A stretch of 11,975 nucleotides of DNA from a virus (IMGVR_UViG_2675903425_000020); one strand, 5' to 3'. Positions 901 through 11,975 are shown, counted from the first letter of the stretch. Notes: generated by a model not told the origin, from the letters alone. A program made the numbers and translations.

Positions 901-2085
901 ATGAGTGAAACTCGTTTTCATGGTGCCCGTGTTACGGAAAGTACCGACCTGGTAACAGCGATTAATGATGTTGATTCCAGTGTTATCGGTATCGTGGCAA
1001 CGGCAGATGATGCGGACGCGGAGCTGTTCCCGCTGAACAAGCCCACACTGCTGACCCGCGTCAATGACGTGCTGGGAAAATGCGGGACTACGGGGACGCT
1101 TTATCGTGCGCTTAAGGCTATCGCAGACCAGGTGAGCACAAAAGTGATCGTCGTTCGCGTGGCTGAACACAAAGAAGAAGGCGGTAAGACGCAGGATCAA
1201 CTGGTTATCGGTGGTTCTGAATCTGACGGCAGCTATACGGGGATGTATGCGCTGCTTGTTGCAGAGCAGGATGAAAGCATCGGATACCGTCCGCGTATTC
1301 TGGCCGCGCCGGAGCTGGACACGGAGGCGGTAACAAAATCCCTGTGCGTGATTGCGGGTAAACTGCGCGCGTTTGTGTATGCCACATGTCATGGTTGTAA
1401 CACGATGGCTGAGGCGATTACCTACCGCCAGAAATTCAACGAACGTGAGGTGATGCTCTTATGGCCTGACTTCATCGCCTACAACCTGAAAAGTGGCAAA
1501 AACGAAACGTTCCCCGCGCCTGCTTATGCGTGCGGCCTTCGTGCGTACATTGACCATGAGCAGGGCTGGCACAAATCGCTGTCCAACGTTCCGGTTAAAA
1601 ATGTGCTTGGGATGTCGAGGCATGTGTTCTGGTCGTTGCAGGCCGAAGACAGTGATGCCAACAGCCTCAACAACAAAGAAATCACGACCATTATTCGTCG
1701 CAACGGGTTCCGCTTCTGGGGCAACCGCACACCGGAAACGAACGCCTACATCTTTGAGGTGTATACCCGAACCGCACAGGTGCTGGCTGATTCAATTGCG
1801 GAAGCGCAGTTTGAAACCATCGACAGTCCACTGACACCTGCGAACGTGAAGGATGTTATCAGTGCCATCAGGGCAAAACTGGATTCACTGGTTACTGCCG
1901 GGAAACTGATTGGCGCGGAGTGCTGGTATGACATCGAGGATAACAGCACCACGAATTTACGTCAGGGGCGTGTGCGTATTCGCTACAAATATACGCCCGT
2001 TCCTCCGCTGGAAGACATGGAGCTTTACCAGTCGTTTACTGATGAATTCTTTGGTCCCGCATTTGCGGTGCTGGGAGGTGCCTGA
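901..2085 (+). CDS. Contractile tail sheath protein (P2 gpFI family)
   Basis: 394-codon ORF; ATG 901 with AAGGGG upstream. Translation shares conserved blocks with P2 FI as I recall it (ADDADAELFPLNKP, KLRAF, YRQKF, WPDF, GLRA.ID.EQGWHKSLSNV, IRRNGFRFWGNRT, YTRTAQV, YKYTPVPPLE). Stop TGA overlaps the next start (ATGA at 2083-2087). Confidence 0.9.
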   Translation: MSETRFHGARVTESTDLVTAINDVDSSVIGIVATADDADAELFPLNKPTLLTRVNDVLGKCGTTGTLYRALKAIADQVSTKVIVVRVAEHKEEGGKTQDQLVIGGSESDGSYTGMYALLVAEQDESIGYRPRILAAPELDTEAVTKSLCVIAGKLRAFVYATCHGCNTMAEAITYRQKFNEREVMLLWPDFIAYNLKSGKNETFPAPAYACGLRAYIDHEQGWHKSLSNVPVKNVLGMSRHVFWSLQAEDSDANSLNNKEITTIIRRNGFRFWGNRTPETNAYIFEVYTRTAQVLADSIAEAQFETIDSPLTPANVKDVISAIRAKLDSLVTAGKLIGAECWYDIEDNSTTNLRQGRVRIRYKYTPVPPLEDMELYQSFTDEFFGPAFAVLGGA

Positions 2086-2597
2086 TGGCTGTACCAAAAC
2101 ATCTTCGCTTTTTTACGCTGTTTGTGGATGGTGAAAACGAAGTGGGTAAGGTGACGTCCGTCACCCTGCCTAAACTGACGCGCAAAACCGACAGCTACCG
2201 GGGTGGTGGCATGATGGGTGCGGTAAGTATTGACCTCGGCCTGGACGACTCCGCGCTTGATGCGAGCTTTGTCATGGGGGGCGCAGTTCGTGAGCTGTTC
2301 CTGAAGTATGGCGGCACGATTGACGGCACGCTACTGCGTTTTGCGGGGGAATACTACACCGATGATGAAAGCGACCTGTATGAAGTCGAAATGCGCGGAC
2401 GTGTGACGGAAATTGATATGGGGGAAGCCAAACAGGGCGAAGCCACATCACACACTTACGCCATTAAAAACACCTACTACAAGCTGAGTGTTAACGATCG
2501 CCCGTTGTGGGAGATTGACCTGCTGAACTTCATTTACCGGAAGGACGGCAAGGACATTGTGCCCGATCGCATCCGTTCCGCGCTTGGGCTTGGCTGA
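2085..2597 (+). CDS. Tail tube protein (P2 gpFII family)
   Basis: 170-codon ORF translationally coupled to FI. Contains VTSVTLPKLTRKTDSYRGGGMMG, DLGLDD, LRFAGEY and EVEMRGRVTEIDMGEAKQGE blocks matching P2 FII-type tube proteins. Confidence 0.9.
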   Translation: MAVPKHLRFFTLFVDGENEVGKVTSVTLPKLTRKTDSYRGGGMMGAVSIDLGLDDSALDASFVMGGAVRELFLKYGGTIDGTLLRFAGEYYTDDESDLYEVEMRGRVTEIDMGEAKQGEATSHTYAIKNTYYKLSVNDRPLWEIDLLNFIYRKDGKDIVPDRIRSALGLG

Positions 2598-2651
2598 TAA
2601 GTAATATGCAGGCGGCGCAGTGCGTCGCCTCTGACTGAAAGGAGTTTCCTG

Positions 2652-3017
2652 ATGAAAGAGACGAAAAACATCGATACCGAAAACACGGTAGTTACTGACA
2701 CTGTGAAAGAAACCAGTGAGCGTGGTGTAAAACTTACCCAACCAATTGAGCGAGGCGGCGAAAAAATCACGTATGTGGAGATCACCGGGGCTATTGAGCA
2801 GGCTGGATCTCTGCGAGATTTGTCGCTGTCTGATGTGCTGAATCTGAAAGCGGAATCCATGTTTACGCTGCTGTCACGCGTGACATCACCGCGACTGGAT
2901 GAAGTGACGATCAAAAAAATGGCATCCCGTGACTTTATTCAGTTATGTGTGGTTGCCGTAAATTTTTTGAGCGGTGCGGACTCTGGCGGGAAGAACGAAC
3001 AGGCGACGGAAGCCTGA
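2652..3017 (+). CDS. Tail assembly chaperone gpE (P2 E family)
   Basis: 121-codon ORF with AAAGGAG Shine-Dalgarno at about 2638-2644; position between tube and tape measure genes; contains slippery heptamer T_TTT_TTG near its 3' end. Confidence 0.8.
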   Translation: MKETKNIDTENTVVTDTVKETSERGVKLTQPIERGGEKITYVEITGAIEQAGSLRDLSLSDVLNLKAESMFTLLSRVTSPRLDEVTIKKMASRDFIQLCVVAVNFLSGADSGGKNEQATEA

Positions 3018-3181
3018 TCACGGTTGTGTGCTTTGAGCACATAGAAGACTTTGTGGCAGATATTGCCGTTATTTTTAACTGGTCGCCCGCCGAAATCTTC
3101 ATGATGACGCCCGGCGAAGTGGTTAGCTGGCGTGAGCGGGCGGCACTTCGCAGCGGGAATGCAGACAATGAAGACTCTTGA
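2652..3181 (+). CDS. Tail assembly chaperone E+E' fusion, made by programmed -1 ribosomal frameshift at 2963-2969
   Basis: Zero-frame codons AAT TTT TTG (2961-2969) give the slippery heptamer T TTT TTG. The -1 frame is open from there to a stop at 3179-3181 and encodes ...VVCFEHIEDFVADIAVIFNWSPAEIFMMTPGEVVSWRERAALR..., an E'-like extension overlapping the start of T. The coordinates are the outer span of the two-frame product. Confidence 0.6.
2963..2969 (+). other. Slippery heptamer T_TTT_TTG (programmed -1 frameshift site of E/E')
   Basis: Exact heptanucleotide in the gpE zero frame with an open -1 frame downstream; same architecture as the P2 E/E' recoding site (established for P2). Confidence 0.6.
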
Positions 3182-11065: not shown

Positions 11066-11092
11066 GTCATAACACTGTGTTACCTGGCTAAT

Positions 11093-11462
11093 CAGAACTT
11101 ATAACCGACACCCACGATGAAACCGTCAGTGCGCCAGTCGCCACTGCCGGAGCCTTCATAAGCAATATCAATGGCCACGGATTCGNNNNNNNNNNNNNNN
11201 NNNNNNNNNNNNNNNNNTAACGGGTAAGCTGGCGATTCTTGTCTCCTGCATAGCTGAATGACGTCACCAGCCCCAGCGTGTCCGTAAATTCATAACGGTA
11301 TTTCACGTTAATCCCGTTAAGATTATCGCTACCGGGAGCGCTCGTCCGGGCATGAAGATACCCCGCGCTCAGCGTGGCCTGCTGCTCAGACGCCCATGCA
11401 GGCGCGCCGGATACGGCCAGACAGATGGCTGCGGACAAAATGGCGGCATAAAGTTTACGCAT
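11093..11462 (-). CDS. lom: Lom-like outer membrane protein (Ail/Lom/PagC/OmpX family beta-barrel), interrupted by a 32-N assembly gap
   Basis: Minus-strand ATG at 11460-11462. N-terminus MRKLYAAILSAAICLAVSGAPAWASEQQATLSAGYLHARTSAPGSDNLNGINVKYRYEFTDTLGLVTSFSYAGDKNRQLTR has a signal peptide and is near-identical to lambda Lom. After the gap the frame reads ESVAIDIAYEGSGSGDWRTDGFIVGVGYKF* with the family-typical terminal aromatic; stop at 11093-11095. The track ORF 11088-11462 is frame-confused by the gap. Confidence 0.85.
11176..11207. other. Assembly gap (32 N) inside lom
   Basis: N-run; reading frame before and after is consistent with one lom gene only if the true missing length differs from 32. 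Confidence 0.95.
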
Positions 11463-11486
11463 AATTACCTCTCGCTTTTCTGCAAT

Positions 11487-11536
11487 NNNNNNNNNNNNNN
11501 NNNNNNNNNNNNNNNNNNNNNNNNNNNNNNNNNNNN
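11487..11536. other. Assembly gap (50 N) between lom and the upstream partial ORF
   Basis: Run of 50 N. Confidence 0.95.
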
Positions 11537-11975
11537 TGGGTTATAAAATTCAGCTGATACTGATACCTGCTGTGGATTTTTTCATCACCACAACCAGCAG
11601 ATCGCTGATACTGGTTGTTGGTGTCCAGTTATTCGCTCCTGATGAAGATACGGTGAATGTCAGTGTCAGCGTCCCCTGTCCGGCAGGCATATCTATAACT
11701 GAGGAAAATACGCCCTGAGCATCCGTCGTGGACTGATTAAAAATCTCCTGACCATTGCGGGTCACTCTTAACCGGCAGGTTGAATACCAGTATGACTGTT
11801 GGTTATTACTGTTGAAATTCTCATGCTTACCACCGCGGAATAACACTGGCGGTATCATGACCTGCCGGTCAAACTTCTGATCATCACTGATTCTTACCGT
11901 GATGGTGCCACTGGCATAAGTGCTCGTGCGGGGGAAAGACTTGCTGACCGTTTTGACAATATCGCCTTCAATCTG
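11537..11975 (-). CDS. Partial ORF (both ends undefined: 5' end beyond window, 3' end in N-run); possibly the C-terminal receptor-binding part of a J-like host-specificity/tail tip protein
   Basis: Minus-strand frame open from 11975 to the gap: [133 protein letters not shown]... Beta-strand-rich, Thr/Ser-rich. Assignment rests on synteny only (J-lom-stf-tfa order in lambdoid phages). Confidence 0.4.

Follow-up and report, generated by a model that had tools for sequence, protein, structure and literature searches.

Can a single phage combine the genes of a P2-type contractile tail with a lambda-type tail end? This question is raised by the viral stretch IMGVR_UViG_2675903425_000020, which comprises 11,975 nucleotides (nt) and is referred to in its full length as the window. 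In the initial annotation, positions 901-11975 were described as a mosaic tail region, in which the P2-like genes FI, FII, E/E', T, U and a D fragment stand next to a lambda-type module of lom, stf and tfa, while two prophages brought together by scaffolding were named as an alternative. Our analysis points to this alternative. With a probability of roughly 93%, the window is an assembly misjoin, in which a run of 50 ambiguous bases (N) in a repeated tfa gene connects parts of two separate E. coli O157:H7 prophages, Sp13 and Sp8.

Chromosomal location of the two halves

The left half of the window, positions 1-7613, is identical in 7612 of 7613 nt (one mismatch) to Sp13 of the O157:H7 strain Sakai (NC_002695.2, 2604970-2612582), and among the matches listed, at least 50 further closed genomes of O157:H7, EDL933 included, contain it at 100%. 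The right half starts at position 7664 and shows two differing positions to Sp8 of Sakai up to position 11185. These two are presumably the single Ns called at 10830 and 10848. The remainder to the right of 11185 is collinear with Sp8 across both further N-runs. In the Sakai chromosome, the two loci lie on the same strand at a distance of 951,954 bp, and a spacing of about 0.46-1.0 Mb was determined for the 12 closed genomes that were found in both hit lists. Halves at different chromosomal loci had been named in the initial annotation as the sign of a misjoin, and this is what the mapping revealed.

A single place for the whole window could not be detected. Across the 5,426 complete E. coli genomes that were compared, its coverage by one place stayed below 80% throughout. 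The best single place covers 77% and belongs to strain 493/89, which carries an intact relative of Sp13; this match stops at position 9623, and the fibre gene of the strain itself resembles the distal half of the stf of the window. Beyond the equivalent of position 7613, the chromosome of Sakai continues with the rest of tfaQ, the insertion sequence (IS) IS629, the partition genes stbA/parM and a replication gene, and not with stf. At the Sp8 locus of Sakai, the sequence beyond the start of the right contig continues with the 3' end of tfa and about 3.6 kb of cargo genes, followed by a tfa fragment and ISEc8.

The repeated tfa segment at the junction

Apart from the two single Ns, three longer N-runs interrupt the window, namely 50 Ns at 7614-7663, 32 Ns at 11186-11217 and 50 Ns at 11487-11536. 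The switch from Sp13 to Sp8 occurs exactly at 7614-7663, where the genes on the + strand to the left and those on the - strand to the right converge. Positions 7375-7613 and 7664-7902 represent one and the same 239-nt segment of tfa, which is present twice with 13 differences (94.6% identical). The left contig encodes residues 71-192 of Tfa and the right contig residues 1-150, so that residues 71-150 are doubled, once per allele. Since the segment is present on both sides of the gap, no single gene or simple crossover product can span it, and one intact tfa gene across the junction was not found. The headline of a mosaic tail region is therefore left without support in the window: the two modules touch solely at this 50-N run, with different tfa alleles on either side.

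The contig ends lie at the boundaries of the repeat. In the left contig, the last base that distinguishes the two tfa copies is 7551 and the end is 7613, which results in an offset of 62 nt; in the right contig, the start at 7664 and the first distinguishing base at 7726 result in the same offset of 62 nt. These equal offsets suggest a de Bruijn assembly with k=63 that was broken at the shared repeat. The tfa copies of Sp13 and Sp8 are about 95% identical over about 400 nt and share exact runs of 62-85 nt.

The lengths of the other N-runs are also informative. In the alignment with Sp8, positions 12523-12783 of the Sp8 locus (L002) are missing, hence the 32-N run stands for 261 nt of lom, while the 50-N run at 11487-11536 stands for about 29 nt of the spacer between lom and J. 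Accordingly, the lengths of the N-runs do not give the true gap sizes in this window. The possibility that the N-runs are masks of the same length over a continuous sequence was rejected on the basis of the 261 nt behind the 32 Ns and of the flanks of 7614-7663, which overlap in gene coordinates. The breaks at the other N-runs probably come from the about ten near-identical copies of the lambdoid tail end in O157 genomes.

Since the gap size is not reliable, the gap could also hide other DNA, for example IS629 together with further sequence, and the Sp13 remnant and an Sp8-like prophage could be true neighbours that became adjacent by an IS-mediated rearrangement. In Sakai, IS629 lies about 165 nt past the left contig end, and the prophage regions of O157 are rich in IS elements, the activity of which was proposed to cause rearrangements and deletions (PMC5359411). 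Nonetheless, no such neighbours were found in the closed genomes within the joining distance of the search of about 6.5 kb, and Sp8 of Sakai has no IS629 beside tfa. Both contig ends lie exactly at the boundaries of the tfa repeat, which points to the repeat and not to an IS element as the cause of the link. A true neighbourhood is considered extremely improbable.

For the misjoin, the following course of events is proposed. The window is most likely a scaffold from a short-read draft of an E. coli O157:H7 strain, of which the left contig (1-7613) is a part of Sp13 and the right contigs (7664-11975) are the J-lom-stf-tfa end of Sp8 or of an identical copy. The assembler, a de Bruijn program apparently run at k=63, broke both contigs at the tfa repeat, and a scaffolder would then have linked both ends and written 50 Ns, probably via read pairs or reference placement in the shared tfa. 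Short reads reportedly do not resolve the repetitive and paralogous features of O157 prophages (PMC5359411), and many genes of the lambdoid Sp prophages were too alike for the design of probes (PMC2669165).

Some points weigh against this explanation. The linking step was inferred and not observed, and since the 239-nt overlap differs between the two sides, the link is not a simple contig overlap. Furthermore, the spacing of the two loci is not invariant. In strain CDC#03-98 (NZ_CP022689.1), the Sp13 piece lies at 4104657-4112269 (+) and the best Sp8-like piece at 4569340-4573859 (-), which is a distance of about 457 kb. In most O157:H7 genomes, the two pieces share one strand at a distance of about 950 kb, and the layout of CDC#03-98 is thus compatible with a large rearrangement of its chromosome. 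Prophage-mediated rearrangements do occur in O157 genomes.

Alternatively, the junction could represent a real recombinant. Homologous exchange of the Sp13 tfa with that of Sp8, either in the strain, in a subpopulation or in an excised or packaged molecule, would then have fused the P88-like tail genes to a lambdoid stf-lom-J end. The identity of the two copies, with exact runs of up to 85 nt, is enough for RecA-dependent exchange, and the fibre genes in the Sp13 lineage are demonstrably mosaic. In addition, the DNA of Sp13 is excised, amplified and packaged without head genes of its own, which implies interactions between prophages (PMC2669165). However, a crossover leaves one tfa, whereas the scaffold comprises residues 71-150 in both alleles, and for loci on the same strand, as in Sakai, the junction would amount to a deletion of about 952 kb, which is presumably lethal. 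The contigs end at repeat boundaries that are defined by the k-mer, and the recombinant was found in 0 of the 5,426 closed genomes. The same holds true for a synthetic, clean tfa recombinant (6800-7613 joined to 7903-8700), for which no full-length match of at least 99% was detected in these genomes. The only full-length match showed 90.4% and was located in a prophage similar to phage P88 with a fibre of its own, while the matches of 98% contain the insertion of a macro-domain gene. Altogether, a real recombinant is considered very unlikely.

For the 'defective prophage pool' of O157, it has been proposed that prophages exchange DNA with each other. The scaffold link could be a genuine low-frequency hybrid molecule that arose in the culture via tfa, with a lambdoid prophage and the Sp13 remnant, which can be excised and replicates, as its two parents. 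If this were true, the hybrid would be a chimera of P88-like and lambdoid DNA and the read pairs behind the link would be real, but we consider the chance of this to be very small. The misjoin thus remains the preferred explanation, and the features of the window (Table 1) are discussed in the following as parts of two prophages.

Table 1. Features of the window with position, strand and supporting evidence (aa, amino acid identity; ORF, open reading frame; GC, guanine and cytosine content).
Feature	Position	Strand	Evidence
IS30 3' end (C-terminal part of the transposase), interrupts D of Sp13	1..475	+	Sakai: partial IS30 repeat and insI1 end at the equivalent of 469-476
D, N-terminal remnant (late control D / VgrG-like hub), 89 codons	476..743	-	97.8% aa to residues 1-89 of P88 gp51
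FI, tail sheath	901..2085	+	PF04984, PF22671, PF17482; 96.7% aa to P88, 45% to P2 FI
FII, tail tube	2085..2597	+	PF04985, E=1.3e-47; 99.4% aa to P88, 43% to P2 FII
E (2652-3017) and -1 frameshift product E+E' (to 3181), tail assembly chaperones	2652..3181	+	98% aa to P88, 32% to P2 E
T, tape measure, pseudogene	3168..5971	+	PF10145; ORFs 3132-5258 and 5135-5971; 91-96% aa to the single P88 T
U, tail gene	5978..6472	+	PF06995 Phage_P2_GpU, E=1.5e-38; 98.8% aa to P88 gp44, 46% to P2 U
Left-handed beta-helix (LbetaH, hexapeptide) acetyltransferase, cargo, 34% GC	6596..7201	+	Pfam Hexapep; GC profile
tfaQ 3' part, Tfa residues ~71-192, left contig end	7245..7613	-	PF02413, E=1.7e-40
Scaffold gap, probable false Sp13/Sp8 join	7614..7663	.	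50-N run; same tfa segment on both flanks
Lambdoid tfa 5' part, Tfa residues 1-150	7664..8112	-	100% aa to Sakai Sp8 ECs_1651; 94% to lambda Tfa
stf, side tail fibre, 973 codons	8112..11033	-	PF08400, PF03406, PF07484, PF03335; 971/971 aa identical to Sp8 ECs_1650
lom (Ail/Lom outer-membrane protein)	11092..11462	-	PF06316; pieces match Sp8 Lom; 32-N run inside
50-N run, intergenic between lom and J, within Sp8-type sequence	11487..11536	.	Flanks collinear with Sp8
J 3' end (tail tip, host specificity), last 141 residues and stop; gene exceeds the window	11550..11975	-	141/141 aa identical to Sp8 J; 41% to lambda J

The P88-like left module and the fibre genes of its relatives

The genes of the left module follow the order of the P2 family, namely sheath, tube, E/E' with their -1 frameshift, then the tape measure and finally U. 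The initial annotation was right in recognizing FI, FII, E/E' and T, which lie on the + strand and are supported by the Pfam domains. Its U (5298-5987) is in fact the C-terminal part of the frameshifted T, since both ORFs of T match the single T of P88, and its D fragment (5978-6472) is the true U. The description as P2-family by sequence holds at the level of the family but not beyond. While FI, FII, E, T and U show 31-46% amino acid identity to P2, the same proteins and D show 91-99% to P88, and the DNA identity to P88 amounts to 94.2% over 6,003 nt (476-6478). Judged from the sequence, the left module is P88-like (Peduoviridae, genus Xuanwuvirus) and not P2 proper, with the restriction that the genome-wide genus threshold is inapplicable to a remnant of this kind.

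P2 shares with the left module the gene set, the order FI-U, the Pfam families and the -1 site TTTTTTG, which is located in E at 2963-2969. In the -1 frame, E' comprises PF06528 (Phage_P2_GpE) and ends at 3181, overlapping the start of T. In contrast to these common features, D of P2 lies behind U in a common operon and shares its strand with V-W-J-I-H-G, whereas D in the window and in P88 is divergent from FI. The - strand of P88 carries gp44-49 and its + strand gp51 (D) together with gp35-40, compared to a D fragment on the - strand and FI-U on the + strand in the window. The orientation of the FI-U block opposite to D and V-W-J-I-H-G was likewise found in the intact relative of Sp13 in strain 493/89 (L001). 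An inversion special to a decaying prophage was considered as the origin of this arrangement and rejected, since the viable P88 and other members of Xuanwuvirus share the layout. P88 itself is a plaque-forming phage with a contractile tail (PMC5285337).

The D remnant is the sole D sequence in the window. It shows 59% amino acid identity to D of P2 over 71 amino acids, is named in RefSeq 'phage late control D family protein, incomplete', and is separated from the divergent FI by an intergenic region of 157 bp (744-900). Relatives without the IS30 insertion match the window only from position 476 on. T is split by a 1-nt deletion near position 5124, as determined by comparison with strain 493/89, and Sakai comprises the same lesion (pseudogene ECs_2640). 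An in-frame deletion of 3 nt at about 3871 was observed in the same comparison. Thus, neither the intact D nor the intact T of a functional tail is present in the window, where D is reduced to 89 codons beside IS30 and T carries the 1-nt deletion.

Sp13 is integrated next to leuZ, and its counterpart in EDL933 is CP-933T. The deletion beside IS629 in O157:H7 begins with the 5' end of tfaQ and extends over H and over the baseplate, lysis and head genes. Since T is frameshifted, D is split by IS30, and H as well as the baseplate and head genes are deleted, Sp13 cannot build a tail. This is in line with its description as the only P2-like prophage of Sakai, which is devoid of most morphogenetic genes (PMC2669165). 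All private lesions of Sp13, namely IS30 in D, the frameshift in T and the truncated tfaQ, are shared by the window. Compared to Sp13 of Sakai, which also shares the acetyltransferase gene, the left half differs in nothing of substance and stops 165 nt short of IS629; the tfaQ of Sakai continues for about 50 nt past 7613 and is truncated by IS629. The encoded Tfa remnant showed 83% amino acid identity to Tfa of lambda, 88% to Tfa of Sp8 and 44% to G of P2 (over 66 amino acids).

Two genes of the left module, the acetyltransferase gene and the separate second 3' fragment of tfa on the - strand, had been missed in the initial annotation. In P2, fun(Z) occupies the slot of the acetyltransferase gene; in P88, the region from U to the fibre genes accommodates a DNA invertase together with an alternative fibre segment. 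A further difference of P88 concerns its G, which is of the P2 type and shows 44% amino acid identity to the lambda-type Tfa of Sp13. In the annotation of Sakai, the acetyltransferase gene starts at the equivalent of position 6629, and RefSeq names the product 'serine O-acetyltransferase'. The hits to NCBIfam models were weak, similar to EpsC, CysE and WcaB, and all below the curated cut-offs. A search against the PADLOC defence models gave no hit at E<=0.01. A role as known anti-phage defence cargo was rejected on the basis of this empty search and of a similarity that is generic for LbetaH proteins. The gene could serve in lysogenic conversion by modifying surface polysaccharides.

A true exchange of fibre sequence is observable in the intact relatives of Sp13. 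In strain 493/89, the order of genes is V-W-J-I, H, a macro-domain gene and tfa. Residues 1-298 of H showed 92% amino acid identity to H of P88 and comprise the P2-type N-terminal domain PF12571, while residues 186-719 showed 81% to Stf of Sp8. The Tfa of this strain is 88-90% identical to those of lambda and Sp8, and the distal part of the fibre gene showed 92% DNA identity to positions 8469-9623 of the window. This chimera of a P88 H and a lambda Stf behind the baseplate genes is an ordinary, known P2-like fibre swap, and the swapped distal fibre and chaperone sequence is the homology by which the assembly was misled. In 1992, Haggard-Ljungquist et al. reportedly described how segments of tail-fibre genes pass horizontally between H/G of P2 and stf/tfa of lambda. 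The known exchange is a true mosaic within one fibre gene of the intact relatives, whereas the window keeps only a tfa remnant of it (7245-7613). The exchange that had been put forward for this locus is found in the Sp13 tfa remnant and in the fibre of the intact relatives, but not in the stf, lom and J of the window, which belong to another prophage. The P2 baseplate genes V, W, J and I lie directly upstream of the chimeric H in the intact relatives.

In the intact relatives, a lambda-type tfa and a fibre gene come after the acetyltransferase gene, and the P2 genes I, J, W and V lie directly upstream of this fibre gene. Such an order would also agree with an ordinary fibre swap in the window itself. 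In that case, stf-tfa (7664-11033) would be the H/G of the P2-like prophage and only lom and J would be misassembled. However, 7664-11185 is one unbroken contig with the lambda-type PF08400 and not the PF12571 of H in strain 493/89. This contig is near-identical to Sp8, whereas it showed 92-95% to the fibre region of the P88-like prophages and lacks their macro-domain gene. Furthermore, the N-terminal 470 residues of Stf were tested and have no counterpart in the P88-like prophages, and the strains that share the left half at 100% have H deleted and tfaQ cut by IS629. A fibre swap of this kind is thus exceedingly improbable.

Two further genes were noticed in the prophage of strain 493/89, which belongs to E. 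coli O157:H7. The macro-domain protein (300 amino acids, PF01661) is encoded at 19839-20741 (-) of L001 between H and tfa, as in the intact Sp13 relatives, and gave a weak DarG-like hit in PADLOC (E=0.004). Its gene is absent from P88, P2, lambda and Sp8 and is unusual in a fibre locus. The second gene, annotated as 'YecA family protein', lies at 8875-10014 (-) of L001 between the D remnant and ogr. Its hits to the E2/E1-E2 models of PADLOC were weak (E=3e-5) and cover only about 25 residues, and the gene may be cargo at the end of the prophage.

The lambdoid right module and the meaning of the join

The right module is an ordinary lambdoid tail end, in which J, lom, stf and tfa follow each other on one strand and are collinear with lambda and Sp8. 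The proposed lambda module of lom, stf and tfa is therefore present in the order of lambda on the - strand, together with the C-terminus of J, but its description as near-identical to lambda does not hold. The C-terminus of J, which binds the receptor, shows 41% and Lom 38-93% amino acid identity to lambda, while for Tfa 94% was determined. For Stf, the identity amounts to 86% over residues 1-286 of lambda orf-401 and drops to 69% at the C-terminus. At the level of DNA, lambda covers 45% of the right stretch with 89% identity. Lambda shares the gene order, the orientation and the domains PF12421, PF06316, PF08400 and PF02413. The Stf of wild-type lambda comprises 774 amino acids, whereas the Stf of the window comprises 973 and contains extra fibre repeats.

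Compared to Sp8, in contrast, Stf, Tfa (residues 1-150) and the C-terminus of J are 100% identical at the level of amino acids, as is Lom outside its gap, and the window lacks the last 43 codons of tfa. In the annotation of Sp8, stf starts at 11027, and both single Ns of the window lie inside this gene. The J-like open reading frame that had been suspected upstream is indeed the 3' end of J, as the domain PF12421 (Ig_GpJ_C, E=1.1e-37) was detected. The lambda-like tail genes expected beyond the right edge are present in Sp8, where genes for the major and minor tail proteins, the tape measure and tail assembly precede J, while the window ends inside J. Since O157 genomes comprise about ten modules similar to the right half, the right contigs may originate from Sp8 or from a second lambdoid prophage in the source strain that contains the same sequence.

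Altogether, the window does not encode a phage that unites a contractile tail of the P2 type with the lom-stf-tfa module of lambda. Both components are known, annotated prophages, and the mosaic as a feature of a single element is not real. As a caution, sequences for tail fibres and their assembly are common to the lambdoid and the P2-like prophages of O157:H7, and scaffolds from short reads can therefore join elements separated by about 1 Mb into mosaic phages that look convincing. Before a hybrid tail between myoviruses and siphoviruses is claimed from a draft genome, the junction should be inspected for N-runs and the region compared with closed genomes. The biology that underlies the window has already been described: Sp13 is a dead remnant similar to P88 and has a Tfa of the lambda type, and the distal parts of tail fibres swap between phage families.

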